Assembly: GCA_032718475.1 (NCBI GenBank)
Contig: JAUCBJ010007112.1
Coordinates: forward strand, 1 to 36,381
Reading direction: 5' to 3'
Length of the DNA stretch: 36,381 bases
DNA from: Nemertoderma westbladi
Taxonomy: Eukaryota > Animalia > Xenacoelomorpha
Shown here in pieces: positions 10,914 to 36,381 of this stretch; positions within the stretch are counted from its first letter, which is position 1; each line of letters opens with the position of its first letter. The notes beneath the pieces were generated by a model, which worked only from the letters and a program-made list of their open reading frames with translations, had not been told where the DNA came from and did no database searches. The position numbers and the translations under genes were made by a program.

Positions 10914-10980
10914 TTAAAGGATATAGCTTCTTTGTTGCAGTAAGCAATAAAGTTGAAAGTACCGGTCAACCGGTAAACCT

Positions 10981-11110
10981 GAACCGGTACATCTGTAGGT
11001 CAGTAGGCTCAACCGTTAGAACCGGTACATCTGTAGGTCAGTAGGCCCTACTGCTAGAACCGGTACTTCTGTAGGTCCATAGGCCTAGCTGTCCTAACCG
11101 GTACTTCCGT
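10981..11110. repeat. 38-bp tandem repeat, about 4 copies
   Basis: aaccggtac(a/t)tctgtaggtc..taggc units starting at 10981, 11019, 11057 and 11095. Confidence 0.85.
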
Positions 11111-11199
11111 ATAAGTACACTAGTATTATTCGATTTGATTATTGCATACCGGTAGGCTGTTTAAGGGATTAGGGATTGATCACCCCTTATACCTTTATA

Positions 11200-12789: not shown

Positions 12790-13085
12790 GATATACCGGT
12801 ATTTATGATAGGCCTATTATCTTTATTTCTATAATCTAGGCTGAAATTATACCGGTACGTGTAATTAATTCTATTTCAGAATTATATATACTACAAACTG
12901 TAAGCTGTATACCGGTATTCCGATAGGCCTATTATATTTTTATATATATTTGTGCTAAAATTATACCGGTATTCTGAGATAAACCTAGTCTGTAATAATA
13001 CTTATATAGTTATATATACTATAAGCATACCGGTATTCTAATATATTATATATATCACGCTACACTGAGTAGCAGTACCGGTAAT
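12790..13085. repeat. Degenerate AT-rich repeat of about 57 bp anchored on TACCGGTA
   Basis: TACCGGTA recurs six times at 50-65-bp spacing. Confidence 0.65.
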
Positions 13086-13169
13086 TAATTACTAGGCTAG
13101 CAGTTAATACTGAGTTACTAGACTTGCTCAGACTGTAATACAGCAGTAGACATTCAACTGTACACAAAC

Positions 13170-14090
13170 ATGTCTGACGCAAAGCAGAACCTGTCAGACA
13201 GTCTACTAGATACAACGGAGAGTGAAGCGACATTAGAGAAACGGCCTGCTCAACCGCAGCCACTACAGACCTATGCGGTAAGAACTAGAGTAGGTTGGTA
13301 CCTTACTGGACCTTCCGGTAGAACGCTCAGGGAAAGACTGCTTCAAGATCGCGTCTGCCAGATGAGTGAATGGGAAGATGATACTAGTGAGGGAGACGAC
13401 CCAACTGAGGGAACACCACACTCCTCAGATAATGACAATCTTAGCTCCAATGTAGATCAATGGAGATATTGCCCCAAGAAGTTTAATCCAACGGACATCG
13501 CTTCCAGAGGAGCAACTCCTCAAGAACTGACAGATACTACAGACCGATTAGGTGAACCCGACTTCCTGAGTAAGGAGAATGAATGGCCTCCCCATCTTAC
13601 TCCGACTGAGATTATACCAGCCAAGGGAGCGGAGAAAGTCGAACCTGAAACCCGGACGTGTGGATCGGAGTTATTTGAACCCGGGATAGATCTGTCGGTA
13701 TTACATGTTGCCAGGGACGACGCCGTGGATCTGGGCCTCCCCACCGCGAGTGGATCCTTCATGAAGATCAGAGAGAGCGATTGGAGCTCTGGAACATCAG
13801 ACGTCTCGCAGGGACTCTCACCTCTCCTGCAGAGAGCGACGGACCACTATAGCTCCTGGAATCGGCTTTGTGACGCCGTCATATACTTTGAGCGATGTTT
13901 CTATCGTCACTATTCCAGGACGAAGAGGAAACCTGGAATTGTATTCAGGATGCAGCGACTCAATCACCCAGTCGGTCGTTTGTGTTTATCGGAAGGGAAT
14001 GGAGGACTCTCCGGAAACTGTGGAAGGCAAGATTCTCTTCCCACGACCACCTCCCTAATCCTTCAAACATCTAGGGACTCCATAACGTAA
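13170..14090 (+). CDS. Internally deleted BEL/Pao pol-derived ORF (306 aa)
   Basis: AVRTRVGWYLTGP (BEL protease C-terminal motif), WRYCPKKFNPTDIASRG..GEPDFL (BEL RNase H C-terminal motif) and YSSWNRL. No RT or integrase core. Confidence 0.8.
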   Translation: MSDAKQNLSDSLLDTTESEATLEKRPAQPQPLQTYAVRTRVGWYLTGPSGRTLRERLLQDRVCQMSEWEDDTSEGDDPTEGTPHSSDNDNLSSNVDQWRYCPKKFNPTDIASRGATPQELTDTTDRLGEPDFLSKENEWPPHLTPTEIIPAKGAEKVEPETRTCGSELFEPGIDLSVLHVARDDAVDLGLPTASGSFMKIRESDWSSGTSDVSQGLSPLLQRATDHYSSWNRLCDAVIYFERCFYRHYSRTKRKPGIVFRMQRLNHPVGRLCLSEGNGGLSGNCGRQDSLPTTTSLILQTSRDSIT

Positions 14091-14599
14091 CAACATATGG
14101 AGTGGGTGTGTGACTCTATTATTTTATATTATTTTATTATTTTTATATTTCTGTATGTATTACTATGTAATTTTATTATAATCGTTTTCTTTAATTTTAT
14201 TCAGTAGAATGTTATTTTAGCGATTATTTAGTAGATTAGTGCAATATATATTCGCGTTTATTACTTAATTACATATATATTATATTTAATGAGACGGCAA
14301 GAAATAATTCTTTTTCTCTTTCCTTACTGTCCGTATTACATTACAAATACGTAACTACAGTAAGATGAAATGTCCGTACTTATTAAAGTACAATAAAGCC
14401 ACTACTATATTCAAGTATTATTGGTAGGCAGAGTATTAGGAATGCAAAGTTCAGATCCTCGTGTCTCGGCTAAACCAAGCTCTGGGTAGACCTTGGAAAC
14501 GACTTGCCTCTTCACACTGACATTGCTTCGTGCGATATTGCTCTCATACCGTATATTAAATAATACATATAGTAGCGTGATGTCCCTTTAACAGTAGCG

Positions 14600-14960
14600 T
14601 ATAACGCAAAATAAATCTGTTAAACCCTTTGACCATCTGTAATTCTAGTCGATTAAGATATCGTGGCACCCACCGATATACTTGAAAGACAAATTATAGA
14701 ATCAATGGTTAACGTCACCAGACAAGTTCTGGAATAAATCGGTGCCCATCTCAAATATTAATTATTTAATATTTGCAAATCTAATACGTCAAAATCTGTA
14801 AAATTCAGATCCTTTAACAATTCTAGTCGATTAAGATATCGTAGCATTTACCGATATTCTTAAAAAGACAATTGTCATAGAATTAAGGATCTTGTGTCCC
14901 TAGACATGTTCTAGAATCAAAATATGTCCATTTAATTATCAAATAATAAAATTTCAGGGA
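14600..14960. repeat. Diverged 178-bp tandem duplication
   Basis: ttctagtcgattaagatatcgt at 14643 and 14821, with similar flanks. Confidence 0.75.
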
Positions 14961-15718
14961 ATAAATTTAAATTCATGTCTTTTAATGAATTTAATAAATT
15001 GCCATTTTACGCAATTTATAACATTCCCAAAATTCCATTAATTAATAGATCAAGGGAGCGGAGATTTATATTATTATGCGTATGCGTGTACGAAAGTCTC
15101 CCAAACATAGTCAATAGCCGATAAAATTCATAAAGTCATGTATAAAACCGAACATTGACTATTAAAGAATACTATTAAATAACATCCCAGATCTGTATGC
15201 ATTGGAACTACCCTAATTCTACCGCTAGCTTTGCATAATGTCACCATAGCAACAACCACGCTAGAATTAGAATTGAGTTAACGAAAAATAGAAAGCCTGT
15301 CCCATTGAATAGCATAGGGAATAAATAGCGCACTACTAGTATCCAAGGATACATAATAATACAGTGACATTCTGGAAGGCATTGACTAACGGACAAATGG
15401 CCCGAATGTGTGTAATTTGTGACAAGTTGTGCGTGTGGTATTTGTGAGTTTATAGGTGAATGTTACTGCTAAGGTGTGTTTACAGTAGCTAGTCGCAATC
15501 GTAAAAGTAACCTAACTCTCCAAGGAAAACCTGAAGTACATCTAAGTCTTTGGGACGGACAGTCGAGTGACTTGTGTCGGTTGTCGTTGTCGTTGTGCGG
15601 CTACGTCGTTGGCGAAAGTACAGCGGCGACGACACATCGGCGCTGAGGATCTCGTACTGTCCGGGGGTTAATTGGAGTAGGCAGCGACGCTTGCTAGCCT
15701 GAATATAAACTCCTTATA

Positions 15719-16051
15719 ATGTGGATAAACTCATATATAGCAGACATGATGGAGTTGATAGCAGATGTTCTTGGTATCGGGGAGCGATATACTCTACTTT
15801 TGCAAGCGTTTGTTGATAGCTTAATACGCGGCGACGTTAGTCCAACTGCTGCGGAGGACGATGGTCGTTATATCGAACCGCCAATGTCCCAAGAGCAGCT
15901 CGCGCGCGAGTTGGACTATAGAAAATTCGCTGCTCGATATACGCAGCGTAATGGTACGTATATGGTCTTCTTAACCACTGGTCATCCTATCGATTTACAC
16001 AATACTGACTATGTCGACTATATATCCTGCCCAGCGGAGTCGGAACCATAA
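15719..16051 (+). CDS. Hypothetical 110-aa ORF in the 3' internal region of BEL element 1
   Basis: ATG-started ORF with protein-like composition; no recognisable domain. Confidence 0.35.
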   Translation: MWINSYIADMMELIADVLGIGERYTLLLQAFVDSLIRGDVSPTAAEDDGRYIEPPMSQEQLARELDYRKFAARYTQRNGTYMVFLTTGHPIDLHNTDYVDYISCPAESEP

Positions 16052-17157
16052 ACTGAAATCCGAATGCGAAAATTCTATTCGAAATCGACTCGAAAGAAAA
16101 GGCACTAAAGAAACAAATAAACGCGGTAACTCCAACGTATATTTGGAATTCTTGATAGAATCATTGTAACTACAAATAAATATCATCCGCGTTTCCCCTA
16201 CCAGACGTGCGTCTTGGGTATTATTACGGTAAATGCCCTAGACCCAGCCAATAAACGGAAAGACATAAACATCCACGGAAACGTTGTGTTAAATACAGTT
16301 GTGTTCGTTATATTTACTGGAGTTTCGAGCGAAACTTGTTTGACGTATCACCTATGCTCACTCGGCTCTAACGATCCTAGAGTAAACCTACGATCAGAGT
16401 CCCGGAATACTCGGTCAAACCTCCTCATTCCTTAGTTGGACCTCAGACCTGCGATCCTGGTGGTGGCGCGGATCCTCGCGGACGGTATTCACTGTTCAAA
16501 GATCTAGTGCTACCCTAACAATTAATCGGTAACACTCCGACAGTGATTTCTAGCTAGCCGCCCATCTTACCTAGCCGGATTGTGACGCGGACACCTAATA
16601 TCACTATCCAACCGTATGGTCGTCCCCGTTTAACGCGATACAACCCCTCATCAAGGTGAAGGAGAGCTTTGTACGAAACGAGTTAAACGCTATTCTATAA
16701 AGATCAAAAGAGAAACCTGCGTTTGTTCAGATAAACGTAAGTTATAACAGTAAGTCCAGTCGATAAACGAATTGGCCTTATCTCAATTCGATTGGGAAAT
16801 CCAGAATCTCTAAGAAGTTATCGAACTTGGACGATCCTATTCTCTGCGAGAGTTTTTGGATGAACGTATCCAGCTACGAGCGGAGGAAAATCAGCTCGAG
16901 GAGAAGCATATCGAAACGGCAGATACCTCGACCATAAACCTACACCTTCTGATGCAATCATATTGCACCCTTCACCCAGGAGTTATGGCCCTCCTAGTAA
17001 AGTGGCTCCCCCCAAAGAGAAAAAGACTCTTGCTAGCCTCAAAAAACTGCGTAAACGCCGTCTGCGTAAGAAAGACTAACTGTTTAGAGTATCTTTATGT
17101 TTTAGAAACTGTGATTTTTATATTTTATAGACTGAAAATCCCATTTTCTGGGAGCGG

Positions 17158-18385
17158 TGTAAAAGCTTTTACTGAATTGTCCGGTTATTTTTCCTTATTT
17201 TTCCCGTAAAGTACTCTGTAGTTGGTTTACCAGGCATAAAAAGGCCGTGTCCTTGCTGTACTGGTGTTTTAGCGGACATAAAAGCTATTTCTTCTGTATT
17301 TGTACTTTAGAGGACATAATCCGTAATTCCGTGACGTAAAAGCTCGATACTCTTGAAAACAGTGTCGCTACCATGACGACGGCTAGCAGCTGATATTGCC
17401 ACGTCGACGTTTCTTTGTTTCTCTGTTCTCTCGTTGTTCATGTTGACCAATCAGAGCGTTTGTGATCTCTGTGTTGGAGGTATATACAGAAACTCAGTAG
17501 TTCAGTGTTATGTTTTTGTCCAGAGCCTAAGAACCGGCTTTGGCACCTCCGTGTTTTAGTTTTTAGTCTTACACTAGTAGGTTTAATTATAAAGGGCATA
17601 TATCCTTTAACGCACCTACCTGACTCATGGAATCACTGCATACTGATGACTGATGTCTGCATACTGCAGTACTGCATACACTGCATACTGTGTAACATTG
17701 TGCATACCTTTATATTGTTATACTGCTATTTACCGTCAGTTCTTCATAATATGGTTGATGAATAATTATATTTGGAATAACGATAAACAACCCCGAAACC
17801 CAATGTTCTTGATATACCGAAGGTAAGAGAGAAGGGTTACAGATAAACGATTGTGACTTATGTTAAAGTGGTTTGAAGTGAATCTAATGTTATTTGATAG
17901 ACCCTACATGAGCCAGTCTGTGTTCCTTTTATATGTGACTAAAATCAGTGAAGATCGGCAGATAAGTGTGCAGTATTGTGCAGCATTGTGTATGAGTGAG
18001 TCTGTTAAAGAAGCATTCCTAAAGAATGCGCCATATATGTGAATTATAATTAAGCCATATCGTTGTGAGTGGTTTAAGTCATAACTCTGTTTATATAGAT
18101 AAAGCGCCACGTCCTAAAGGAACTGTTAATATTCCCGAAGGTGAATAATATTGTCAGAGATTATATAATACTGTCAGTCGAATAATACATTAGGCTTACA
18201 TAGCAATAAAATTAAACCGTCGAACCCAATCTCCCGGGAATTTCCAGCGGGTGAATGGTCGCGCACGGATTGGTTTCGACTAGTGTAGTGAATCAAATAC
18301 TTGTCATAGACTAAAAACTGATTTAATATCTAGAAGACATCTTAATTTGGTGGGTTAAACTGCCAAAGGTCTGAAAGCGCGAACA
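17158..18385 (+). repeat. 3' LTR of BEL element 1
   Basis: Copy of 9686-10913 at offset 7472; the ORF-track translations of both copies are identical. Confidence 0.96.
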
Positions 18386-18390
18386 AAGGG

Positions 18391-20561
18391 TTGAAATTAA
18401 ATTAGCTGAATCTAAGTGTAGGTCATTACTATATAAGGGGCATGGATATATGGAATTACCTAAGGCTTTATCAGCTAAAAAATGTACAATAAATATACAA
18501 ACAGCTGATAATGATTGTTTCAAATGGGCTATTATATCCGCAAAATTTGGTAGCAAAGTGAAAAATAATAAAAACCATACTTCATCGTACAAAAATTATA
18601 TGAGTCATTTCATTTTTGACATTGGGAACAAAGATTATCCAACAGAGTGGCAGTTAGCGATTAAACTTTTTGAAAAACAAAATTCAAAATATATAATTAA
18701 TTTACTATTTTGGAATAACGACAACAAACGCACCCCTGTATCTATATTAAGACAACCTCCGTTTAGTAAAATTACACCTGATAAACAATTATTAAATATA
18801 TTACTTGTAGTAAAAAATAACAATGTACCTAAACTGAATCATTATGTTTGCATAACTAACTTGAATCGATTGCTGAATACGAGAGCTCTTCATACCCAAG
18901 GTAGGCAATATTCTGAAAGGTGTTTGACACATTTTTTTCGAGCAGAAGTTCTTCTTCGACACTGTCTCATATGCTACCAAGGAATAAGTCAGCGCGAGAA
19001 ACTACCTAATAAAAAAAGAACACACATTAGTTTTACAAATTTAGATAGAACCTTATCCCCATTGTTTGTCACCTACTTTGATATAGAATGTATCTTACAA
19101 CCTTCAGTTAATAATCAATTTATACAGGAGCATATACCGTGTGCGGTGAGTTATTTAATTGTTCCCAATAGTGAATTAATTGATGCTCCAAAATGTCATT
19201 TGAAAACATTTGTAAAGACAAATAATAATAATTGTATTCAAGATTTCTTAGATTCATTATATACTGATTTAACTGAATTATGTTGTTGGTCAGACATATA
19301 CACTCATAAAACTATGCCATTTACTAATATTGATTTTGTAAATTTTGAACAAGCAAAATTTTGTTTCTATTGTAATGTTACTTTAAATAATAATGTAGGG
19401 AAAAACAGACACCATTCACATATTACTGGTAAATATATTGCAGCAGCCTGTAATAGTTGTAACCGAAGTTTATCATTGAAACGAAACCTGTATGTACTTT
19501 GCGGGCACAATTCCAGTAATTACGATATACATTGTATATTACAAACCGGATTTAGAGATAAGAAATACACAGATTGTGATATAAAGGTTATACCGAGAAA
19601 TACAGAACGATATATTTCACTGAGTGCATTTATCCCAATTAAAAACACTTCTAAAAAAATTGAGTTACGTTTCTTAGACACATATCAATTTTTAAGCTTT
19701 TCTTTAAGTAATTTAGTTGAGTGTTCAACAAAGGATGTAGCGAGTCATGATATAAGCTCAATTTTACCTATCACTATACAAGAAATGAAATATTTTTATC
19801 CAAACTTGAATAACTCAACAATTAAACGGAAAGGAGTATTTCCATACGAGTACTTGACAGATATTAATAAATTTAATGATACTAGTTTGCCATCTATAAA
19901 TAATTTTTTTAGTAACTTAAGTCAAAAAACATGCACAATTGAAGATTATAGGTTTGCAAGATTATCATGGGTAGAATTCGACTGTGTGAATCTCAAAGAT
20001 TATCTTTTAGCCTATTTAAAACTCGATGTTTGTTTGCTTACTGATATATTTGAGAATTTTAGGAATGTTTGTAAACAAAATTACGATTTAGAAGTGGTTT
20101 TTTACTGTAGTATCGCATCATTTACCTATGATTGCGCGCTAAAATATAATAAATGTAAAATAGAATTAATAAAGGATTATCAGACATATAGAGATTTTAA
20201 AAAATCAATTAGGGGTGGTGTTTCATTTTGTCGAAAGCATTATATAGAATCAAATATACCAGGAACAAGTACATATGATTATACTAAGGAAGAATGCCAT
20301 ATTTTTAATATTGATTTCAACTCTTTATATTCTGGGAATTTAAGTAAAAAACTACCCACCTCGCAATTCAAAGAAGTAAGTATTAAACATTTAGAGAATG
20401 CAATTCCAGAAAAACTAATCGAGTACTTGGTAGATTTAGACATTGATGGATCTACTGGATATTTTTTAATATGTGATTTAAATTATCCTAAAGCTATTCA
20501 CGATTACAATTACCGTTAGCACCAGAGCATTTAAGTATAAATTAATCAATGCTTTCACCTT
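18391..20561 (+). pseudogene. pPolB-A 3' part (exonuclease, endoVII insertion, Pol motif A), truncated
   Basis: Joins in frame with 9685 (SLLR-VEIKLAESKCRSLLYKGHGYMELPK). Motifs YFDIEC, HHSHITGKYIAAACNSCN, HNSSNYD, KGVFPYEY, YLKLDV, IDFNSLYS. Frameshifted LPLAPE near 20510; motifs B and C absent. Confidence 0.92.
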
Positions 20562-20641
20562 AGTAGTAATAGTATGCCATCCTCTGCGACAGTTTAGTCC
20601 CACTTCACACCTTGGGTGTTAAGTAGGTCATTAATTAATTA

Positions 20642-20741
20642 ACCAATTAATTAATTGGTCGATTAAACAATTAATTAATTGTTTAATCAATCGATTTGTA
20701 TCAAATAATGTTGCCAAAGGCAATTTAATTTGACACAAATC
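20642..20741. repeat. Cluster of three palindromes near the Polinton B terminus
   Basis: Perfect 18-bp (20642-20659) and 28-bp (20661-20688) palindromes centred on TTAATTAA; imperfect hairpin at 20693-20741. Confidence 0.9.
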
Positions 20742-21454: not shown

Positions 21455-21817
21455 CAATAGCACGTCACTCTCCCCCTCTTTTTTATTTCTATTGGTTCCC
21501 CACAAGCTTTACTTTTATTTTCATTGGTTACCCTTTCCCTTATAAACCCCCATCCATCGCTTTGAACTTTACTTACAAAAATATTATTAACCATTTTACT
21601 TTTTATTTAAAGTTATAATACATTTATTGTTATAAATAATATATTGTTGCAAACATCATTTTCTTTTTCCAACACCACGAATCAATCTGCAGGTAAGAAC
21701 AATAAATTTGTATTTTTATGAATTCGTTTAGTTTTAACATTATTGCCTCAAAATAAAAATCAACCCCACGAAACCTTCCCAAACTTATTATTATTATTTA
21801 GTTTTTTTATTTTATAG
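21455..21817 (+). promoter_or_regulatory. Putative Pol II promoter and 5' UTR intron of pPolB-B
   Basis: CCAAT/ATTGG at 21455, 21491 and 21523; TATAAATA at 21631; TCATT at 21656; CAG|GTAAGA donor at 21693; T-rich TTTTATAG acceptor ending 21817; ATG at 21823. Confidence 0.55.
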
Positions 21818-21822: not shown

Positions 21823-24800
21823 ATGCCTATGTCACCAAAATTTGTTGACTGTCTGCAATAAGAACATGCGTAGCGATCATCTCAACAAACATCTCGCAAC
21901 TCATTTTAAACAATATTCATGCGATTGTTGTGGCACCTGGTCCTCTGATAAGAAAAAGAAAACTATGGTTAGCCATCTAGCGCTATGTACGCAAGGTGGG
22001 ACTGGGTTCAGATTTATCAACGAAGAAAACACTTGCAAATGTGGCGAATCATTCACTTTATCAACCTTTAAAGAACACGATTGCTATACGCGGCTCTTCT
22101 CTCGGAAACGCAAACAATCTCAAGCGCTTTTGTCACCACCACCTCCACCAAACATTCAATCTCCAAGGGTTGGCCCTTCTACTTCAAGACAACAGACTGG
22201 AGGTTCGACCAACAACCCATTTTTACCATCCGTGAATAGCTCATCCCACAACCGCTTATTTACATATACAAACACCTTACTTACACCACAATTAGATGTA
22301 GAGTTAACACTTAGAGAAAATGAAAGTAATATTTGGGATAGAGTGAGTCAACATTTTAATAATGAATTTAATTTTATAAAAGTTTGGTTAACTATTTCTA
22401 TCTTAATGGAAAGGGAGATATTCTGAGGGTACACAATTAGAAACCTTTAGTTTCAAATCAAACGCTTCAAATAATCAAATAACTTCTAATTTAGATTTTG
22501 AAAACTGGTTTTCGCAAACTATTGAATGAATAGATGAATTAATAGCTGTCTTTGTTTGCATGGGCAGTGGTTGGAATATTGTTTCAATTAAAGAAATCAA
22601 TTTACAAATTTCTACCTTCAATCGCAACCCCTATTTCAAAGGACACGGTGGCGGTTATATTCCTAAAATTTTAGCAAAGAAGAAGTGCATTATTAACTTA
22701 GATTGTCCCATCGGGGAATGTTTTAAGTACGCAGTAGTCGCTGCTGCTTGTTATAAAAAAATTGAAAGAAAGAAACAAAACATTAGTCGATTGTCAACAT
22801 ATACTCCATACATGACCATGTTTGATTTCAGTACGATGAGTTTCCCAGTAGATAGAGTAGTAGGCATCCCACGTTTTTTAGAAACCAACCCTTTGTACTG
22901 CATTAATTTATTATTTTGGAGTACTGATAACATATTGAGCATTCTATCACAACCAGATTCAGAACATTGCTTCCAAAAAACTGTTTTACATTTAATGTTT
23001 ATAGAAGGTAATCAAAACAATCCAGGACATTACTGCGCAATTGTCAACTTAAATAGACTTATTAAAAAACAAGGACAAGGGACCAAATCCATTTGTGAGC
23101 GTTGTCTGAGAGCTTTTTATACTATTAACTCATTGCAAACTCATCGGGAACTATGTTACACGAGCAAACGACAATTGGAACAAATGCCTACACCAGATAA
23201 ATTAAAAATTAAATTCAATCGATTAGATAAGACTTTATCCCCTCCATTTGCATATATGCCGATATTGAAAGTGTTTTAGAACCTACATCAAACCCTAAAT
23301 TAGTTCAAAAGCACATTGCTAGCGCCGCCGCATTTTATACAGTACCCAATCGCGAGCTAATAAATCCCCCACAAACATCATTACAAATGTTTAGAGACAC
23401 TGGAACAAACCATGTTATAGACGATTTTCTCACTGCTCTCGAATCACACTGTAGGCAATTGTACGAGTGGACTATTTCTGGTACAAACACCAACGTTCCT
23501 AAACATTTGACTCGAGCACAGAAACAAAATTTTGATAATGCTACAAACTGTTACACTTGTAACTGTTCTCTAACCCCTGATTCACATCGACTGAATCTAG
23601 CAGAAAATCTCAATACTAAAGTTTGTGACCATAACCATCTAACGGGAGCCTATCGTGGAGCGGCATGTGTTAGTTGTAACCGCAAACTTTCTCTTAAACG
23701 CAATAAATTTTATGTAGTGCTACACAACCTGAGGCATTACGATTCCCATTTAATCTTAAAAGAAGATCTGAAAAACAGTTCTAGAACTCATTGGAAGATA
23801 AACGTAATTCCAAAGAACACTGAGACTTATATCAATATAGAAATATCATTTCCCATAGACAAAACCATGCAGACAGCAAATGCAAAAGAAAGTATTGTCA
23901 TCAATCTTCTAGACTCTCTACAGTTCATGACAGCTAGTCTAGATAAGCTCAGTAGTTATCTTACTGCAAACAATTCTGATCTAACAAAAGCTATCCCACA
24001 CACTTTGAAACAAATGAAAAATCTTTATCCCAATATTAGCAATTCCACTATTAAAAATAAAGGTATATTTCCTTATAGCTATATACAATCCATAACAAAC
24101 TTATACGAAACTCAATTACCACCAATCGAGAGTTTCTATAATGATTTACAGCTTGAAGACTGTAGCGAGCATAACTATCAGCGTGCCCAAACTAGTTGGG
24201 TTGAGCTTCAATGTCAAAACATATTTGATTATATGATGGGATACTTGGCTCTAGATGTCACACTTCTCGCGGATACTTTCCAACAGTTTAGGAAACTATG
24301 TTTCTCCAATTATGGGTTAGATCCTCTGCATTATTATACTTCACCGGGGTTAACGTACAATGCAGCATTGAAATTTACAAACAGTGAAATTGAACTACTA
24401 TCTGATGGAACTATTTACGCAGATTTTGAAAATAATATTCGCGGAGGGCTTGTATTTCTGAATACACACTTAGAGGAAGCTAATATACCTGGCAAACCAG
24501 AATACAACCCCTGTAAACCAGAAAAATACCTAATTCCTCTCGATGCAAATAACCTTTATGGTTCTGCTCTCTCTCAGAAGCTCCCCTGCAGCAATATGAA
24601 AATCGTCGATACACCAATAGATCTGGCTACAGTTGATGCCACTGGGTCAGTAGGATATTACTGCATCGTTGACCTCAAATACCCCCGAGAGATCCACGAC
24701 GAAACTGCTGACCTACCACTAGGAGCAGAAAAAATGTCCATTCCCAAGAGCTTCCTCAGTACATACATGCAAGACCTCTGGCAACATTATAATCTCAATG

Positions 24801-25875
24801 ATCAAGGGACCTATAAGCAATATAATGAGAAATATAGTAAACTGATTCTTCATCAATTCAAAAAAACTAATTATGGTATTCATATAAAATTACTCCAATT
24901 ATACTTAAAATTAGGACTTCAAATAACACAGGTGCATAAAGTATACTCATTCACTCAAAAATACATATTCAGAGACTATATCTCGTTTAATACATCCAAA
25001 CGACAATCTGCTAAAAATGCATTCGAAGTTTTATTTTATAAACTACTCAACAACTCACTCTATGGGAAAAGTCTTCAGAAGGTACGAGACCGGTTATCAT
25101 TCCGACTCTGCACATCCCCAGAACAGTGCGACCTGCTAATATCAAAACCAAATCATGAGCGCTTCATCTCATTCTCCCCCTATCTCAGTGGTCACACTTT
25201 TACTAAAGAAGTAGCAGTACTCAATCAAGCTGTATTTATTGGGGCAACCATCTTAGATCTTTCAAAGCTAGAGATGTATGATTACTATTACTGTAAACTG
25301 AAACCTCTCGAAGAAAAGCTGAGATGTGAAATTCGAGCCTTAGCCGGGGACACGGACAGTTTCTTTCTTTCGGTTACCGGTGTTGAGCACAAATTATTCC
25401 TAGAAGCCATGTTTAACTCCGGCTTTCTAGACACTTCAAATTACGATCCCTCACACCCCCTCTTTACAAATCAAAACAAGGCTTCCTTAGGTTTTTTGAA
25501 AGATGAAAGTAGAGGTCTATTATACAAATCATTTGTATTTTTGAAACCGAAAATGTATTTATTCGAGGCATACGACGCGCAACCAAAGCGGACTTGCAAA
25601 GGCATTTCAAAAAATATTGTAGCAAAGCAATTAACAAATAAACACTATTTAGACTGTTTTATCAACGAATCAACAGATTTCACAAACAATACAATATTTA
25701 CTTCTAGGGAACATCAAATGTTTACAGGGAGAATAAAAAAAAAACATTAAGTCTCTGGGATACAAAATCATTCTGGATGACGAAATATTACAGTAGACCA
25801 TATGGCCACTATATTACAGGATTAACTAAACCAACAAAAAAAACTGTAATACCACCTTATTTAGTTGCAGAATAA
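21823..25875 (+). pseudogene. pPolB-B: full-length protein-primed family B DNA polymerase with N-terminal Zn fingers and endoVII insertion, disrupted
   Basis: GSGW, YADIES (Exo I), DHNHLTGAYRGAACVSCN (endoVII), HNLRHYD (Exo II), YLALDV (Exo III), LDANNLYG, KLLNNSLYGKS, GDTDS, C-terminal LSLWDTK..PYGH. Frameshifts near 21845, 22415, 23250 and 25740; premature TGA near 22526. Confidence 0.95.
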
Positions 25876-25876
25876 A

Positions 25877-26058
25877 ATGCCATACAAAGCAAGCAGCGGA
25901 TCAACACCAATTCAAATAATCAATCGTCAATATACAGCTCAATCTGAATTTCCAATTGATATAATCAAAGTTTCTCAACAACTAAAAGGTCAGATGCGGC
26001 AAAAACCAAAAATGTTTGTGTATAAGACTGGATCTGCGACAATTATGCTATTCCCAAC
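25877..26058 (+). pseudogene. TBP-like protein, 5' part (first TBP repeat)
   Basis: MPYK..IQIINRQYTA..PIDIIKV..ATIMLFPT. ATG one base after the PolB stop; interrupted by BEL element 2. Confidence 0.72.
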
Positions 26059-26598
26059 TGTGACGGGATCTACGGATCCCGGTTTATCCGTTGGGTTTTC
26101 TATCCACGCGTCCCCGCCGTGTGTGAAAGGTAAAAGAGTTCTGATGTTGGGTAATATGTATAAAGGTATAATAGTCTGACAGTTGATATAGTATAGTATG
26201 ACACAACAGGTAATATATAATGGCGGTAGCGGACGGTGACAGAAGTCCCCGTTCCACCCTACTGATCTGACTGAGTAAACTGACTGAATAGGGGAGCACC
26301 AACAGGTAATATACTGCACGGTTGGCCTAATTGCTACCTAGTCGATGCTGTCCCCCCATTGGCTAATATCCCACTTCTCGCCCCTTCACCTTCCCTGGTG
26401 TGTTTCCCGTTCACCCCAGCTATTCTCTCTCTTGTCAGGGGAGTAACCCCTGACCCTTATTGTGTGTGTCTCCTTTGGGGCCTATTGTCCCCGTTTACTG
26501 GGCTGACACGAGGTTGATTGGTAATCAACCTCGTGCTCCCAATATTGCTTTATGGCTCACTCTATGGGTTTGTGTTAGCGGAATTGGATAAGCTAACA
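26059..26598 (-). repeat. 3' LTR of BEL element 2
   Basis: Direct repeat of 32918-33457, adjacent to the polypurine tract. Confidence 0.96.
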
Positions 26599-26959
26599 CT
26601 CCCCCCCATGCTATCTTCCCGGTGAGAAGATAGCATCCAACTCAAGTGCGCTACAATTCCGCTGGATCCCGATCTATTATCGGGTGTGGGGTGGGTCTAT
26701 TTTTTCGGAGTCGGCTTTCCAGGCCGCTCCCTATGGGTATGATGTCACTACCCTCTGGCGTCTCGTGTCGGGCCGATCGTGCGCTTCTCTCACGCAATTT
26801 TTGTTTCCCCAACACTCTCACCACTATACTCCAACTCTCGCATACCCCCGGACCTCCTCGTCCCACACTCTTCCTCTCACTTCTCCTCCCCCACACTTGA
26901 ATTGCGCCCACGCTCTCTTCGCACTCCGCACTATCACTCCATCACTCTCTCGTCACTCC

Positions 26960-28950
26960 CTAAGGCTTTCTACCTACTGCTTACTAACTCTAACTATCTA
27001 ACTAACTCTGCTAACTACTAACTCTTACTACTTCTAGCTCTAACTGAGAGCCTCTAACTTTCTACTGACTCTAACTCTCTACTAAGTCTAACTAACTCCT
27101 ACTAACTTTCTACTTCTACTAACTCTACTTGACTCCTCTGAGTCTACCAACTCTGCTAACTAGCTCTACTAACTCTACTCCACTAGCTCTGCTAACTCTA
27201 CTCCACTAGCTCTGCTAACTCTACTAACTAGCTCTATTAACTCTACTCCACTCTTCTAACTACGTGGCGCTTGCGGTGCCCACAACCACTCTACTATATG
27301 GCACCCTATGTGCCCTCTCTGCTCTACTCTACTACCTGGCACCCTATGTGCCCTCTCTACTACACTACTCTATCTCTAACTCTCTAACTCTACTACCTGG
27401 CACCCTACGTGCCCGTCTCTACTCTTCTACTCACTGGTACCCTATGTACCCTCTCTACTACCTCTAACACTCTACTCTACTACCTGGCACCCTATGTGCC
27501 CGTCTCTACTACTCTACTCTATCTCTAACTCTCTAACTCTACTACCTGGCACCCTATGTGCCCGTCTCTACTATTCTACTCTATCTCTAACTCTCTAACT
27601 CTACTACCTGGCACCCTACGTGCCCGTCTCTACTCTTCTACTCACTGGTACCCTATGTACCCTCTCTACTACCTCTAACACTCTAACTCTACTACCTGGC
27701 ACCCTATGTGCCCTCTCTACTCTTCTACTACCTGGCACCCAATGTGCCCGTCTCTACTCCTCTACTCCCCCTTTACGTCTCATCGCCTACACGTGACGCT
27801 CTGAGTGCCGGCAGAGTGGGTACGTTAATTATGTGAACTACTACTGACTCTACTAACTCTCTTCTAACTCTACTAACTCTTTTTGTGCCCGGCACCTCTT
27901 GTGCCCGGCACCTTCTAACTCAACTAACTCTACTAACTCTCTACTAACTCAACTAACTCTACTACTAACTCAACTAACTCTACTACTAACTCAACTAACT
28001 CTACTACTAACTCTTTTTGTGCCCGGCACCTCTTGTGCCCGGCACCCACCCTAATTAACATACCCTGCTCTTACATCAAACACGTCATCACGCCCGTGCC
28101 CCACTAAGTTCAGCGCATTCCCTACTAACTCTAACTGCGTGGCGCTTCCGGTGCCCACAACCCTTCTACTGCTACTACTAACACTCCTATCTAGCGGTAC
28201 TACGTACCCTCTTACTACTCTAGCTCTCTCTACTAGCTAGCAGTACTACTACCCTCTTCTAACTCTTACTCCTTAACGGTACTACGTACCCTCTAACTCT
28301 TACTCTCTAACGGTACTTACGTACCCTCTAACTCTAACTAACTAGCGGTACTTACGTACCCTCTAACTCTAACTCTAACTAGGTACTACGTACCTACTGA
28401 CTCTCTAACTAGGTACTACGTACCCTCTAACTCTAACTAACTAGCAGTACTTACGTACCCTCTAACTCTAACTCTAACTAGGTACTACGTACCTACTGAC
28501 TCTCTAACTAGGTACTACGTACCTACTAACTCTAACTCTAACTAGGTACTACGTACCTACTAACTCTAACTCTAACTAGGTACTACGTACCTACTAACTC
28601 TTCTAACTCTCTAACGGTACTACGTACCTACTAACTCTAACTCTAACTAGGTACTACGTACCTACTAACTCTTACTAACTCTCTAACGGTACTACGTACC
28701 TACTAACTCTAACTCTAACTAGGTACTACGTACCTACTGACTCTCTAACTAGGTACTACGTACCTACTAACTCTTACTAACTCTCTAACGGTACTACGTA
28801 CCCCTTAACTCCTACTCTCTAACGGTAGAGAGACTCTCTAACTCTACTCTAACACTAACTATCAGTGCTAACTGACTAACTAACTAACTCTGACTCTAGG
28901 TACTACGTACCTCCTAAATAACTCCTAACTACCTAACTTCTACCTACTTT
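26960..28950 (-). repeat. Low-complexity CTAACT/CTACT array studded with short hairpins
   Basis: Plus strand almost G-free except in GGCAC-N5-GTGCC and GGTAC-N3-5-GTACC units. Confidence 0.92.
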
Positions 28951-28972
28951 ATTATTTAATTATTTTATTTAA

Positions 28973-31900
28973 TTAAATAATTATTTTATATTTTGTGCGT
29001 GGGAAGGGCGTCTCGCCCTCATTCCCACCCCCCTCAGTCCAAAACTTTGGACGACTAAAAACTCTCACGTGCCCCTTCTTCCGGTAGGCACTCTCCCGCT
29101 GCCCTCCTATACGTCCTCTAACTCTTCGCCACACTCTCTTCGGTGCCACCTTTGCTGGCCTCCCCCTTCGTATGTGCGCTGGCATTAGAGCCCTCGACGA
29201 CCCCCGCTCGTCCCTCGGTATACGCGGTGTCTGCCCGTGTAATGCCCCCTCGCACTGTGTCCGTCCTGCGTGTGTATGCAACACGCCTCCTCCTACTTTC
29301 CCGACTCCCTTATGTTTGCTAATGGGCTTCTCTGCCCCTGGTTTAGTCCTTTCATATCCTCTCCCTTTCCAACACTCTCCGGATCTGTGTCCTTTTACCA
29401 CACATCGATGACATAGTCCGTTTGCGTCTGTGTAGGCTACACGATCTCGTTTGGGCAACGCTTGCCAGTACTTGCAACTCCTGGTCTTATGGGTTCCGTC
29501 CCGATGTAATTGACATTGGAATCCTGGATTATAGCGTTTCCTGTATAGTCCTTCACGTATCGCGCTTAGGTTTATATGTACCGATTTAATGTTTTGGTTG
29601 TCTAGACTCGGCCTACTGGGTATATTGGGATTGTGTTTATTTTTGGTGTTATTTTCTTTCTGTCCCTGCCACGGTGTGGCCCTGCTACCACCTAACTGTG
29701 GACTAGCAGTCCCCTGTACGGCCGCGTGTGGTATTGACTGTCCGCACGACCTGTTCTCGTCCAAGGGGTTCGATGTTCTCGCTCCTATTGGGGTATATTG
29801 TCGATATTGTGATGGGGGAATGTCACCCTGTCCCCCCCCAGCCGGTATGTTTGGTACTGGGGTTGATGTTAATACATTGGGGCCCATACGTCTATCTCCA
29901 ATAACTCCCCCCTCCCCTGGATATATGTTATGTCCCTGTGTATTATAGTCATGCTGCTGTACCGATATAGGCCTACCTACCTCTCGCCTACCTACCGGTA
30001 TGTACTCCGCGACTTCCGGGTTTAATCCCGTCGTTCGCGCTACCCCATCGCCTACTCTATCTCTCCCAGCATGGCCTATAATAGTATGTGCAGTAAGGCC
30101 TACAGTATGTCCTGCAGTCTGCATGTGCCCTTCCGAACCGAAGTTTATTCTTCGCGAATCTCGAATCTCCCCGCGACTACTGCACTCTCGATCGGCAGCT
30201 ATATCCCGTCGGGAAGTTTCCCTTCGATCCCCTCTCCTGCTCTCGTCTTCGTATTGGTACGTCTTGTACCCCTCTCTTGGCGTGCGGTGCGTTTCTCCGG
30301 GGCGACGGCAATCTCCCGAAGTTCGACCCCACTGGCTCCCTGACTCCATCTCTACTATCGACGGTCCGTTATCCGTCCTCGCACTCCTATCGTTCGTGGC
30401 GACACCTTTTCTACTATCTTCTCTTCTTCTCTTTTCTGTGTAGTATTCCGGCTCGTGAGGTCTCTCGTCGACCTCCCGGTTAAACTCCACTGTTCTTCTT
30501 CCCTCTTCTGGTCGGGCTCGACGCTTCGTCTGCCCTCTCGCGACGTCAACCTGCTTCTCTCTGCTCGATCGCACGCCGCTGGGGATACTCGCAATCCCCC
30601 TATTACTCTCCGTCGCCGGGTGTTGCGGTTTACCTGATTCGGCCCGCGCATTATCCGCTGACGGCTGTGGGACACTCTCTGCCCCCCCTCTCTCTCTACT
30701 AATCTCTCGCGGTGGGGTGCCCGCAGCCCCCCCCCCACCCGCCACTTCTAACTTCACTATCTCTTACTACACTTCTGCGTCCCTCTTGTCGGACATTCTC
30801 TACCCCCCTTCTCTCGCCACTAATCTTATGTGGTGGGGCGCCCTGTAGCCCCCCCCCCCCACCCGCTACTTCTAACTTCACTACTTCTTACTACACTTCT
30901 ACACCCCTCTTGTGGGGCATTCTCTGCCCCCCCTCTCTCGCCACTAATCTTATGTGGTGGGGCGCCCGTAGCCCCCCCCCCCACTCGCCACATCTAACTT
31001 CACTATCTCTTACTTCGTCTCTACACCCCTCTCTAGTCGACGCACTGTCTCTACTACGGCTGGGTCTATTCACCCCCGCCTCTCTCTCTACTACTGCGTG
31101 GCCCATCAGGCCCACCTTCGGGTTGGCTCAACCCCGCTACCTCCTGCCTACCAACTACGTGGCCTACCAGGCCGCCGTCGGGTTGGCTCAACCCTGCCAC
31201 TTCCTGCCTACTAACTACGTGGCCTACCAGGCCACCGTCTGCCGGGTTATGTACGTCCGACACGCTCATATTAATAGCACCATTCCCAATATTATTTGTT
31301 AAATCAATTAAATTATTAGAATTTGAAACGAGATTTAAATTATTTAAATTAGAATTATTATATATTTTCAAAATTTAAATTATTATTCGTATTATTTGAT
31401 TATTCTGATATTTGAATTAATGTTATTATTTGAATTTAAATTTAAATTACTACTACCCGGTAAAATATTATTTCCTGTAATAAAGGGATTAGGGTTATCT
31501 ACTACGGTACTATTAATATTAACTACTTCTAACGTACTACTACTACCCCCCTCGCCCGTACGGCTACACCAGTTCTGGTTCTCTCGCCCGGTGCCTGTAA
31601 GTGGGGTCTCACTCTCTGACATTTCCAACCGCGCCGGTTCTAGTCGGCGCCGCTCCAGTTTGGCTTGATATTGCGCAAGCCTGCCTAGCCGGGCACGCAA
31701 ATCATCCCGCACACGCTCTGCCTCTATCTCTCTCTCTATGCACTCTCGTAAACTTTGCTCGGCCAACTCGGTATCTCTCGCAACCATCTCAAACCGCCTC
31801 GCCGGCTCGCTCTCTACTCTCATCTCCCGCTCTCTACACTCCTTGACTCTCTCTCTACACACCTCGACTCTCTCTCTATCCTCCCTTGCCCACTCTCTTT

Positions 31901-32667
31901 CTCTCTCTATAACGGCGGCATTATCCCTCAGTTGCCGCTCTGTGCTATTCAGCTTTGCCGCTACCATTTCTAATTCATACGTCAGATTTATTTTCAGCAC
32001 CCTTCTTTCTTTCGCGGAGGATGTAGCAGACTTATCGGTTGCGACGGACTCCCGTCGCCCCTCCGTCCTACCAACTTTCCCCCGCCTCCCGGAACTCCCT
32101 GCCTCCGACCGACGAGACCGAATCCTCGGAGTTAACCTCGGATTCGCCCTCCCCAGGTCTCTTCCAACCCACTAATTTTATATCCTGGGCATCGACTAAG
32201 TATGGCCCTATGTACACTACACTAGGTCCCATACCCCCACATTCCCATAGTTCAAACAGTTCGAAGGCAACTCCCCACGCCCTCAACTCTGCTAGTTCTC
32301 TCTGCCCAGAACGCACTAGGTGATCAAAGTATCTGTTCGACTCACCTAGTCCCTTTGTCATCCTGACCTCGTCTATCCTCGCCCCCTCCTTGGCCTCCTT
32401 TAGTAGTTCCCGGGTCGCGTTGTAGGCCCGTCGAAGTCGATCAGAAACCCCGACGTCCTCGTCGCCGACCTCTCCTCCGTCTCTCCGGGTCCGACGTCGT
32501 ACCGACGGCCCCACCGTCGCCGTTCCGGTGGACCGTTCGTCGTCCTCGGCCTGTGGCTGACCGGTGACATCGGTACGTCGACCCTCGCTCCGCGTCGACT
32601 CGTCTTTCTCTTCTCTCCCTCTCGTCTCCTCGACTCGACTCCTCTCTTTGTAGACGACCCCCCACAT
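28973..32667 (-). pseudogene. BEL/Pao Gag-like polyprotein broken into several frames
   Basis: Consecutive ORFs 32667-32068, 32000-31392 (coiled-coil-like), 31371-31066, 31115-30891 and 30757-28973. Last ORF has CQLH..H....C..W..L....R.......LCHRC..KGH....C knuckles. Internal 60-bp and about 120-bp coding repeats. Confidence 0.8.
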
Positions 32668-32917
32668 CTTGGTTCGCCGGGTCGCTCGTTATCGACGTGG
32701 CGTCAACGCACGTCGACGTGCGTAGCATCGACCGGCGTCGTGGGTTCGTATCGTCTCGCCGTGGCCTCGCGGATCGTTAGATCGTCGTCCGGGGTCCGCG
32801 GCGGTGTCGTTCCTTTCTCTCGACTCATCTTCGTCTTTAGTAGCTGGTCGTCACTAGCTAGGACGGTAGCTCTATTCTATCTCTGTCAGGGCAGCTGGGC
32901 GGATCTAGTTCTGTCAC

Positions 32918-33457
32918 TGTGACGGGATCTACGGATCCCGGTTTATCCGTTGGGTTTTCTATCCACGCGTCCCCGCCGTGTGTGAAAGGTAAAAGAGTTC
33001 TGATGTTGGGTAATATGTATAAAGGTATAATAGTCTGACAGTTGATATAGTATAGTATGACACAACAGGTAATATATAATGGCGGTAGCGGACGGTGACA
33101 GAAGTCCCCGTTCCACCCTACTGATCTGACTGAGTAAAGTGACTGAATAGGGGAGCACCAACAGGTAATATACTGCACGGTTGGCCTAATTGCTACCTAG
33201 TCGATGCTGTCCCCCCATTGGCTAATATCCCACTTCTCGCCCCTTCACCTTCCCTGGTGTGTTTCCCGTTCACCCCAGCTATTCTCTCTCTTGTCAGGGG
33301 AGTAACCCCTGACCCTTATTGTGTGTGTCTCCTTTGGGGCCTATTGTCCCCGTTTACTGGGCTGACACGAGGTTGATTGGTAATCAACCTCGTGCTCCCA
33401 ATATTGCTTTATGGCTCACTCTATGGGTTTGTGTTAGCGGAATTGGATAAGCTAACA
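32918..33457 (-). repeat. 5' LTR of BEL element 2
   Basis: Direct repeat of 26059-26598. Minus-strand TATA-like GTATATTA near 33170 followed by TCAGT near 33145. Confidence 0.96.
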
Positions 33458-33462
33458 CCAAC

Positions 33463-33805
33463 TGGTTCAATAACAATAGTGGGTCCATGTAAAAATGTTT
33501 GTAGTGATTTACTTTATCTGAAACAATGCACCAACATATTAATTAAGAAAATTAAATTAAATACAGTGACCAGACTAATTAAGTTACCATCTCTTAATTT
33601 TAAATCATTAAGTAAAAAGTGTGGACATCATTTTGTAAACAATGTAAAGGTATATATTGATTTTACGCCGGAGCTCTTTTGTGGAATTCGATTGTATATT
33701 GGGCGATGTTATTTCAGTGTCTTTCACTCGATGAAAGTTATAAGTATGTGTCCTGTTGGTGATTTTGAAGAAGCTCTTATTATATTATTTAGTTTATTGA
33801 ATTAA
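33463..33805 (+). pseudogene. TBP-like protein, 3' part (second TBP repeat)
   Basis: GSITIVGP...KLNTVT...DFTPELFCGIRLYIGRCYFSVFHSMKVI; joins in frame to 26058. Confidence 0.75.
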
Positions 33806-34339: not shown

Positions 34340-34782
34340 ATGATGAATATAGGAGATATGCGGTTTCGTTTTGGTAGTACAATATTAATAGCCGGTCCTA
34401 GTGGTAGTGGAAAAACGTCTTTTTTGGAGAAAATGTTATTGAATAGGAAATTGATCTTTAACGAAACCCCAAACAGTATTACTTGGTTTTATGGACAGAC
34501 GAAACCAATAATTAAAGGGGTTAATATTACCGCTTTAAATGAAATTCCAGAACACTTTAATGAAAATGTGAAAAACCATTCTATCATTATAATCGACGAT
34601 TTGATGACAGAACTACAAAATTCCAAACAAGCGACTACGCTAATTACTAAAGTAGCTCGACATACAAATTCATTGGTAATTTTTCTCACTCAAAACCTTT
34701 ATCAAAAAAGAGGAGAATCTAGGACCCGTTCCATTAATTCCACTTATTTCTTATTGTTCAAAAATCCAAGGGATCAGACACA
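34340..34782 (+). pseudogene. Polinton DNA-packaging ATPase (A32/FtsK-HerA family), interrupted
   Basis: Walker A AGPSGSGKT, Walker B IIIIDDLM, ARH, FLTQN, LFKNPRD; cut by the Gypsy LTR at 34783. Confidence 0.92.
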
Positions 34783-35060
34783 TGTAGCGGCGTTATTCTC
34801 AATGAATAAATCGAAGCGCGGGTTATTATGTATTATAATAATAATAATAGTTAGCAATGCATTGCTACTGTAAAGATATAGATATACCGGGATAGGGCCG
34901 CAGTCATCCGTATAGCACACAGCGTGCCGGTACTGCAGTGTACGGTACCAAAAGATGATAGATGGACAGTCTGTATGTAAAACTCCACATCGTCCGTTGC
35001 TAGGCAACTAGGGACGCCACTACTGTATATCTCCTAAGTCCCGCATACAGTATCGCTACA
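34783..35060 (-). repeat. 3' LTR of the Gypsy element (278 bp)
   Basis: Terminal inverted repeats TGTAGCG...CGCTACA with an adjacent polypurine tract. The partner LTR is not in the window. Confidence 0.82.
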
Positions 35061-35114
35061 TAACCCCCCCTCAAGTGTGGTAACACGATAAATCCCTAAT
35101 AGTGGCGATGAATG

Positions 35115-36381
35115 TTAGGTGGTATATCTTTCCGGACGGCGGACCTGTCGGCCGGAACGAGTCTGAAACGTGGACGACGTCGTGGTGGGAGGTTTCGAGT
35201 GGGCCTTGGGCCTGGCGTAAGGACTGGTATGTCGTGCTGGAGTGGCTGCTACGGCAGCGTAGGAAGGCGCCGGAAGGTCGGGATCTGACGAAGATGCCGA
35301 CGGTGCCGGTGGGATCGTGGGCGGCCGCGGAATGAAGGCAATCTTCAGTCTGTCGATGGAGACATGATCCAGGCGGCCATTGAGGTCAAGGAGGAAAGTT
35401 TTTGGCTCCACCTTAATGATTTTGTAGGGGCCAGCATAGGGGCGGTTGAGAGGTCCTACATGACCACCACGGCGTACATACACGTAACCTGTCGAGGCCA
35501 GGGATGCCGGGATGTGGGAGGTTGACGGTGAGCCGTGGAAGTTTGTCGGCGGGGGAACAGCTGACTTGAGGCGTTCCTTGAGGTCGGAGACGAAAGCTGA
35601 GGATGGAGTCTCTGTTCGCGCGGACCCAGGGCCCACGAACTCGCCAGGCACGTGGAGGGGGGTGCCATAGACGAGGTCGGCGGGTGAGCAGCCAGGGTCC
35701 TCCTTCCAAGCCGTCCTGATCCCGAGTAGGACTAGTGGGAGTTCGTCCATCCATTTCGGTCCATGTAGACGGGCCTTGAGCGATGCCTTGAGTTGGCGAT
35801 GGAGTCGCTCGATCATCCCATTCGCCTGTGGGTGGTAGGATGTAGTAGTGGAGGCCGAGATGCCGAGGAGGTTGTGAAGCTCGGCCCACAGGTGAGAGGT
35901 AAACTGCGCCCCGCGATCGGAGGTGATGTCCCCGGGTATCCCGAACCTGGCGATCCAGCCCCGTAGAAGTGCGCGGGCACACGTCTCAGCGGTGGCGTCG
36001 ATAATGGGGATGGCCTCAGGCCACCGTGTGAACCTGTCGATGATTGTGAATAGGTAGCCGTGGCCTTCCGATGGTGGAAGTGGACCAACGATGTCTACGT
36101 GGAGGCTGTCGAATCGGGCCTCAGGGGCAGGGCGACTTTCTAGTGGCGCATGGACATGGCGGCCGACCTTGGAGGCCTGGCAGGCGGCGCACTCGAGGCA
36201 GCGTCGGCGCACGTCTTTCTTCATCCCATGCCAGATAAAACGCTCGGAGATGGCGCGGATGGTGGGCTTTGGACCGGCATGTGAGAGGCCATGGATGGCC
36301 TCGAAGATCCGGCCGCGCCAGCTATCCGGGACGACGGGGCGGTTCCGGCCCGTCGAGGTGTCGCACAAGACCGTGAAGTGA
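35115..36381 (-). CDS. Gypsy pol integrase region (HHCC, DDE, GPY/F), 5'-partial
   Basis: H.LSHAG..C..C, HVDIVGPLP, TSDRGAQF, YHPQANGMIER, YAGPY, C-terminal TRSGR. Confidence 0.96.
   Translation of the reverse strand, partial: HFTVLCDTSTGRNRPVVPDSWRGRIFEAIHGLSHAGPKPTIRAISERFIWHGMKKDVRRRCLECAACQASKVGRHVHAPLESRPAPEARFDSLHVDIVGPLPPSEGHGYLFTIIDRFTRWPEAIPIIDATAETCARALLRGWIARFGIPGDITSDRGAQFTSHLWAELHNLLGISASTTTSYHPQANGMIERLHRQLKASLKARLHGPKWMDELPLVLLGIRTAWKEDPGCSPADLVYGTPLHVPGEFVGPGSARTETPSSAFVSDLKERLKSAVPPPTNFHGSPSTSHIPASLASTGYVYVRRGGHVGPLNRPYAGPYKIIKVEPKTFLLDLNGRLDHVSIDRLKIAFIPRPPTIPPAPSASSSDPDLPAPSYAAVAATPARHTSPYARPKAHSKPPTTTSSTFQTRSGRQVRRPERYTT

Follow-up and report, generated by a model that had tools for sequence, protein, structure and literature searches.

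The 36,381-nucleotide stretch analyzed here (the window; Nemertoderma westbladi contig JAUCBJ010007112.1 of assembly GCA_032718475.1, positions 1-36,381, forward strand) contains a Polinton, called Polinton A below, in which an open reading frame (ORF) resembling the TATA-binding protein (TBP) is split by a long terminal repeat (LTR) element. This ORF is very probably a Polinton gene with a TBP fold, and we lean toward the view that its product serves as the element's own promoter-recognition factor, bringing the host's RNA polymerase II (Pol II) to the later (packaging and capsid) genes. The split gene and its interruption comprise the following features.

25877..26058, plus strand: 5' portion of the TBP-like gene (codons 1-60 plus some bases of a split codon)
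33463..33805, plus strand: 3' portion of the TBP-like gene (113 codons, then a stop at 33803-33805)
26059..33457, no strand assigned: LTR retroelement inside the TBP-like gene (LTR pair, tandem repeats, minus-strand ORFs)
26054..26058, plus strand: left copy of a 5-bp target-site duplication, with the right copy at 33458-33462 (identical; the bases further out differ)

As the initial annotation had proposed, removal of 26059-33462 restored one reading frame, of 174 codons, made up of 60 codons open from the ATG at 25877, 1 split codon, and 113 codons that were open in the continuing frame to the right of the insert, where the other two frames ended after 9 and 2 codons. The first repeat is divided between the two parts: its strands S1-S4 and helix H1, with N16, F47, and F58, are encoded by the 5' part, and its S5 and H2 by the 3' part, which then encodes the entire second repeat. 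The insert has the structure of an LTR retroelement: two LTRs of 540 bp each (26059-26598 and 32918-33457) differing by a single mismatch (26280), TG...CA termini, and a target duplication of 5 bp, where 4 to 6 bp is expected. Its minus-strand ORFs gave a weak zinc-knuckle match at best, with no match to a reverse transcriptase or integrase among those tested, and the insert is likely nonautonomous and recently inserted. Long low-complexity tandem arrays occupy 26980-28900 within it. The LTR also matched contigs from public sequencing runs with very high summed depth, which suggests an abundant nonautonomous LTR family.

The uninterrupted gene was recovered from those data. In all four public runs (at most three samples, from three studies), a single LTR-free contig of 398, 481, 483, or 537 bases spanned both halves. 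LTR-free contigs held the main depth across the TBP-like gene and many variant contigs were present, so the gene likely belongs to a multicopy family, contig depth not being equated here with copy number. The window copy of the element is dead, and the TBP-like gene is uninterrupted in the public data. Between the gene and the deep contigs, three of seven differences fell at third codon positions, which is too few to judge.

The resemblance to TBP noted in the initial annotation was backed in three ways: by language-model features, by an alignment-free fold of the two halves as separate chains, and by a profile of compact TBPs built without the query. In the ESM Atlas, all 30 matches of the 3' half were TBP clusters (score, 0.93; 193 shared features), with a recognition value of 1900, under the tool's mark of 2300. 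When ESMFold2 was given the two halves as separate chains and no alignment, they assembled with a score of 0.77 versus 0.00 for three controls, with predicted local distance difference test (pLDDT) values of 82-83 and 91 and at least 93% contact agreement between runs. The pairing mark is passed by 51 of 78 solved pairs and 2 of 108 mismatched pairs, and a pass may mirror likeness to solved TBPs and says nothing on activity. The predicted contacts placed S5 between S4 and S1 and paired S1 with S1', which is the TBP order S4-S5-S1-S1'. The compact-TBP profile consisted of 26 sequences, namely, the proteins P0123 and P0124 from the metagenomic loci L015 and L016 and 24 relatives of 136 to 245 amino acids, Polinton context being established for L015 and L016 only; these were found without the window protein, and the profile matches solved TBPs at an E value of 3e-18. 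Against this profile, the window protein, read with an X for the break, scored 16.4 bits, and the highest of 1000 shuffles scored 10.1; its two halves ranked 1 and 2 among the 346 ORFs of the window. Supplying the compact-TBP alignment raised the pLDDT of the AF2 (AlphaFold2) model of the 3' half from 37 with the single sequence, which was unusable, to 83. A VIA search with that model matched human TBP at Z 9.8 over 105 of 113 residues (root mean square deviation, 2.2), with TBP in the top five rows and the best non-TBP row at Z 6.7; since the model rests on a TBP-like alignment, this fold search is not independent. The protein is predicted to form a pseudosymmetric two-repeat saddle with five strands and two helices per lobe.

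Several searches weigh against this assignment. In Pfam, neither half, scanned separately, matched the TBP family (PF00352). A sequence search of the PDB with the halves gave no match, phmmer gave 0 matches among 1.84 billion representatives, and the 5' half had no match in the ESM Atlas. An archaeal-TBP profile (65 sequences) scored the protein at 3.0 bits, below the best shuffles (up to 4.5); hhalign returned probabilities of 51% and 19% with the compact family and 3% and 0.2% with archaea; and Foldseek with the 3'-half model placed TBP in its top rows but at weak E values of 0.014-0.05. A single-repeat profile scored 12.2 and 7.4 bits, compared with 10.9 and 11.1 for the best shuffles, pairwise BLAST against P0123 and P0124 was not significant, and a word-index search returned four candidates, none of which scored. 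A weak Pfam row for a capsid family (E 0.12) was dismissed as chance. The want of anything significant in Pfam, the PDB, or the large phmmer search would suit a superficial resemblance, with the ORF encoding an unrelated helix-grip or KA1-like alpha/beta protein; so would the dependence of the fold search on an AF2 model from a TBP-like alignment and the Z values of 5.7-6.7 reached by phosphoglucomutase C-terminal and KA1 domains. However, only TBP rows covered 104-105 of the 113 residues at Z values of at least 7.9, the TBP strand order appeared in the alignment-free two-chain model, and the Atlas matches were TBP without exception (30/30). We consider a merely superficial likeness very improbable.

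The residues expected at the DNA-binding face were partly retained. Both central Asn residues had been thought to be present; N16 indeed aligned to the invariant first Asn of TBP, whereas the second Asn position is most likely taken by Thr, T34 (residues of the second repeat are numbered from the start of the 3' half). In two alignments of the second repeat, Thr34 fell on the Asn position, and Asn33 fell on the D/Q position just before it. Among the 25 contact pairs listed, taking T34 as the mate of N16 gave four mirror pairs and one self-mirror pair, compared with one and one for N33. By alignment and by contact symmetry, N16 alone is kept of the two symmetric central Asn residues of the TBP family, with T34 at the second position. 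The earlier count of three out of four intercalating Phe residues was close: F58, F72, and F87 are firm, and the fourth, F47, may also be kept, since it aligns with the first stirrup Phe only if a gap of 3 to 4 residues is allowed. F72 and F87 were invariant in the alignment with the compact relatives. The conserved Gly of the second repeat is replaced by Met (M90). In the acidic C-terminal stirrup of TBP a pair of Glu residues binds TFIIB, the roles of these positions being known from TBP structures; here, the second Glu is kept (E70) and the first is Thr (T68). The protein is basic (pI 9.6; 22 K+R versus 8 D+E), and an archaeal TBP example has a pI of 4.05.

From the predicted saddle, the basic surface, the three or four wedge Phe residues, and the one central Asn, the protein probably bends AT-rich DNA with an altered sequence preference. 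Because a TBP fold is predicted but one of its two defining central Asn residues is replaced, the protein would best be filed as a diverged TBP-fold factor that may work like a viral TBP. The strong divergence of the DNA-facing center, with Thr for the second Asn, would also fit a decoy that binds host TBP partners (TFIIB, TFIIA, TBP-associated factors, NC2, and Mot1) or host promoters and damps or redirects host transcription, the element's own promoters not being read by the TBP-fold protein. Loss of the second Asn in the compact relatives P0144, P0147, P0148, and P0149 points the same way. In contrast, the retained wedge Phe residues and basic character are consistent with DNA binding.

The gene lies within a Polinton, of which the following features were identified.

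21823..25875, plus strand: protein-primed DNA polymerase B gene, pPolB (PF03175, E 1.2e-16; PF02945, E 1.2e-4)
34340..34782, plus strand: A32/FtsK-like packaging ATPase gene, disrupted at 34782 by a third LTR element
20562..20567, plus strand: AGTAGT, which probably forms the left end of Polinton A, at the point where the homology to the pPolB of a second element, Polinton B, ends

The TBP-like gene was found directly after pPolB, as had been claimed: the frame of the pPolB C terminus (25708-25872) ends in a stop codon at 25873-25875, and a single base separates this codon from the ATG at 25877. Approximately 530 noncoding bases separate the TBP-like gene from the downstream ATPase gene. The latter matched PF04665 at 23.4 bits, against a cutoff of 22.8, and had 308 homologues, its relatives sitting in Polinton-type loci. 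The pPolB of Polinton A carries an endonuclease VII insert, and its window copy is broken by several frameshifts or stops. Polinton membership is indicated by the protein-primed polymerase and the A32-like ATPase. Polintons also have terminal inverted repeats with AG-rich ends and a target duplication of 6 bp; the AGTAGT at 20562 would be such an end, and the right end lies beyond the window. Polinton A is interrupted at 34782 and the window then ends, so that integrase, protease, and capsid genes would lie outside it. The link between the TBP-like gene and Polinton genes, on which the initial annotation hinged, is borne out by the flanking pPolB and A32-like ATPase genes, the probable AGTAGT-type left end, and two unrelated Polinton loci with a Pfam TBP, L015 and L016. 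A host TBP pseudogene caught by chance was rejected as an explanation, as the gene abuts pPolB on deep contigs from three samples and is far from canonical TBP.

TBP genes were also found in other Polintons. A metagenome scan, which covered 1 of 64 parts, yielded with the ATPase alignment 16 loci, 7 of which were clear (L010-L016, several only 1 to 7 kb long). Across 25 ATPase loci, 2 of 2053 ORFs matched the archaeal TBP profile, one in L015 and one in L016; 2 TBP-positive loci among 7 clear ones is no frequency estimate. L015 is a near-complete Polinton with a pPolB-like ORF, rve, ATPase, and protease, large ORFs that we took as capsid genes, and a TBP (P0123) recognized by Pfam at E 7e-8. 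In L016, a TBP (P0124; PF00352, E 2.8e-9) and a TFIIB (PF00382, E 6.1e-6) adjoin each other at 1088-3129, between the integrase block and the ATPase. Linkage of TBP to Polinton genes is seen in both loci, whereas the pPolB-TBP adjacency of the window is not, as TBP does not sit beside pPolB in either. Next to the TBP of L015 (L015:9037-10850) were accessory ORFs with weak dUTPase and F-box matches and a DUF4326 match.

Scans of viral contigs with the ATPase, pPolB, and a two-sequence TBP alignment found no close relatives, and the nine distant loci retrieved there with the ATPase alignment contained no TBP. The window protein was 13 to 21% identical to the compact relatives, which it resembles in size and basic pI; P0148 has a DF.PE.FCG-type second stirrup, and the four relatives named above share with it the loss of the second Asn. 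It differs from them in its more canonical first repeat, its position abutting pPolB, and the lack of a neighboring TFIIB. The phylogeny that had been called for was built but left the window protein unplaced: in a tree of 41 rows (without the near-copies L147 and L157, without L152, and without eukaryotic TBP or TBP-related factor), it formed a branch of 3.2 changes per column and did not group with the compact relatives. Given this long, unplaced branch and a tree without eukaryotic TBPs, we do not claim an origin.

AT-rich palindromes were present close to the left end of Polinton A (20621-20696). These palindromes, and the location of the gene one base from pPolB inside a replication-packaging block, would accord with a TBP fold that has left transcription and now serves to bend DNA during replication, integration, or packaging, with the palindromic termini as one possible site. 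However, TBP is paired with TFIIB in L016 and lies away from pPolB in both L015 and L016, and in the accessible portions of the literature examined, viral TBP-fold proteins act in transcription. We judge a purely architectural role to be improbable.

Two further features bear on how the gene might be expressed.

21631..21817, plus strand: predicted early promoter and leader, read from the sequence
25852..25870, plus strand: putative acceptor-like site ending TTGCAG, within the last pPolB codons and six bases before the TBP ATG

Before pPolB, a TATAAA at 21631 is followed by an initiator-like TCATT near 21656, a donor-like GTAAG at 21693, and an acceptor-like AG (21816-21817) that lies five bases ahead of the pPolB ATG at 21823. 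Because there is no intergenic promoter space before the TBP-like gene, a shared spliced leader is plausible. In the scheme that we favor, a single early promoter with a canonical TATA box, usable by host TBP, would drive both pPolB and the TBP gene, the TBP possibly being made by alternative splicing of the shared leader. The element's TBP would then mark the later promoters and direct host Pol II to them. It would rely on host TFIIB, as no TFIIB gene adjoins the TBP-like gene in the window. No RNA polymerase gene was found among the tested ORFs of the window or L015.

Candidate promoter words differed between the loci. In L015 and L016 together, [AT][CT]TTAAG, a noncanonical word picked after looking, occurred 39 to 62 bases before 7 of 21 genes, compared with 0.74 expected; in these loci it occurs before the ATPase and neighboring genes. 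In L012, a near-complete Polinton of 10.8 kb, 3 of 11 genes had TATAAA at a distance of 42 to 50 bases upstream, compared with 1.26 expected, and none had the TTAAG word. More tentatively, Polintons may run a two-stage program with a private promoter code, in which host TBP reads a canonical TATA promoter that yields both the polymerase and, through alternative splicing of one leader, the element's own TBP, after which this TBP reads a lineage-specific non-TATA word and switches on the virion genes through host Pol II.

Other observations count against a promoter-recognition role. The window ATPase gene, the sole later gene in the window, has canonical-looking TATAAA words upstream (34274 and 34326) and no [AT][CT]TTAAG in range, and a private promoter word is thus unsupported in the window lineage. 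No TBP was found among the ORFs of L012, so the gene is not needed by all Polintons. Judged from the sequence, DNA or TFIIB binding could have been lost through the changes at the second Asn position, at the Gly of the second repeat, and at one stirrup Glu. The TATAAA words before the pPolB leader (21631) and before the ATPase gene would be explained if the protein were a plain supplement of host TBP, using ordinary TATA boxes to keep the genes on in cells or chromatin short of host TFIID and having no private code. However, such words are cheap in a region this AT rich (GC 0.33), and a branch of 3.2 changes with an altered central residue is unlike a conserved TATA reader. The failure to find the private word before the window ATPase gene would suit the decoy described above. 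Against a decoy, the TFIIB encoded beside the TBP of L016 suits initiation, and L015 and L016 have in common an upstream word at a fixed distance. We regard a decoy as unlikely and a plain supplement as slightly less likely again; recognition of the element's own later promoters is the reading that we prefer.

Compared with cellular and archaeal TBPs (PF00352; 5fur_A, 7o4i_O, 1mp9_B, and 1ais_A), the window protein has a similar predicted two-repeat saddle and strand order and shares the first Asn, three or four Phe residues, and one acidic stirrup residue. It differs in being encoded by a mobile element, in its identity of 12 to 20% in structural alignments, below Pfam detection, and in consisting of the core only, with approximately 79 residues between the Asn positions instead of approximately 90. 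Thr likely takes the place of the second Asn and Met that of the second-repeat Gly. Most giant-virus TBPs serve an RNA polymerase encoded by the virus. TBP-like factors of the Nucleocytoviricota (M1PH61, A0A1C9C511, and a B263R homologue), which have a diverged viral version of the fold, were the top rows in BFVD, with TM scores of 0.5 to 0.62. Poxvirus VITF-3 is likewise described as serving a virus-encoded RNA polymerase (PMC12917281); the Polinton setting differs, with no RNA polymerase gene among the Polinton ORFs tested. A comparable working model is the TBP mimic of beta- and gammaherpesviruses, ORF24 in Kaposi's sarcoma-associated herpesvirus, which is reported to hijack host Pol II for late genes (10.1101/2025.08.25.672222): the virus lacks an RNA polymerase of its own, and a TBP fold leads to the late promoters. 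As described there, ORF24 depends on viral partners and on an additional DNA-binding domain at its C terminus, and it preassembles with Pol II, whereas the Polinton protein is a bare core of 174 residues for which no such partners were seen.

There is some earlier record of a TBP in elements of this kind. In figure legends, Starrett et al. 2021 (PMC8502044, Fig. 5; preprint 10.1101/697771, Figs. 5 and 6) list "TBP" for maps of MELD viruses, so that a gene with this label occurs in a midsize pPolB-type element related to Polintons, as here. There, it is a legend label only, in a section on non-animal data sets, without accompanying analysis in the text searched, and the supplement text searched contains no match to TBP or TATA. 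No passage on TBP or TATA was found by term searches of PMC10748475, PMC8097293, 10.64898/2026.06.19.733378, or 10.1101/2022.05.25.493380, two Polinton surveys being among the papers searched. The literature search, in the text open to it, returned no paper analyzing a Polinton TBP, although annotations of this type may exist in figures, in bioRxiv supplements, or in papers behind subscription.

The remainder of the window is crowded with other elements. The third LTR element (34783-36381), which sits in the ATPase gene, has a minus-strand ORF with rve and H2C2 integrase matches. This rve ORF (35115-36380) was rejected as a Polinton integrase, as it is within the LTR-bounded insert starting at 34783, and a 177-amino-acid ATPase ORF was rejected as the whole gene, its tail deriving from the LTR insert. 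Between window positions 23231 and 25732 and the deep contigs, 23 of 34 differences, among those listed, were at third codon positions, and this excess makes it likely that the lineage diverged under selection before the copy decayed. Polinton B (8200-20561) has a pPolB that is 39% identical to that of Polinton A over 495 residues. It is split by an LTR element (approximately 9688-18385, with LTRs of approximately 1.2 kb) and cut short at 20561, where Polinton A has inserted and lies nested within it. An orphan ORF of 138 amino acids (8434-8850), which had no Pfam match, precedes the pPolB of Polinton B and is itself preceded by a 33-bp inverted repeat (8232-8336). Two LINE (long interspersed nuclear element)-like reverse transcriptase remnants are on the minus strand at 3280-5312 and 6475-8001.

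A TBP of the element's own bears on the control of capsid genes in Polintons and on the question of whether these elements ever turn to producing particles. It would be a concrete and testable switch in which a single small protein acts with host Pol II and a candidate promoter word, and it also bears on where larger DNA viruses obtained their TBP-like factors. Natural variants of TBP whose central residue has changed also offer a ready test of how the specificity of TBP can be reprogrammed. The value of the dead window copy is that it marks a lineage whose divergence puts it beyond Pfam and phmmer, and divergence beyond the reach of these tools suggests that the Polinton TBP gene is undercounted in annotations. 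If the two-stage program is true, it would be a minimal late-gene switch built from one bare TBP core and evolved apart from the herpesvirus switch, and the window would represent a further, deeply diverged lineage of it.

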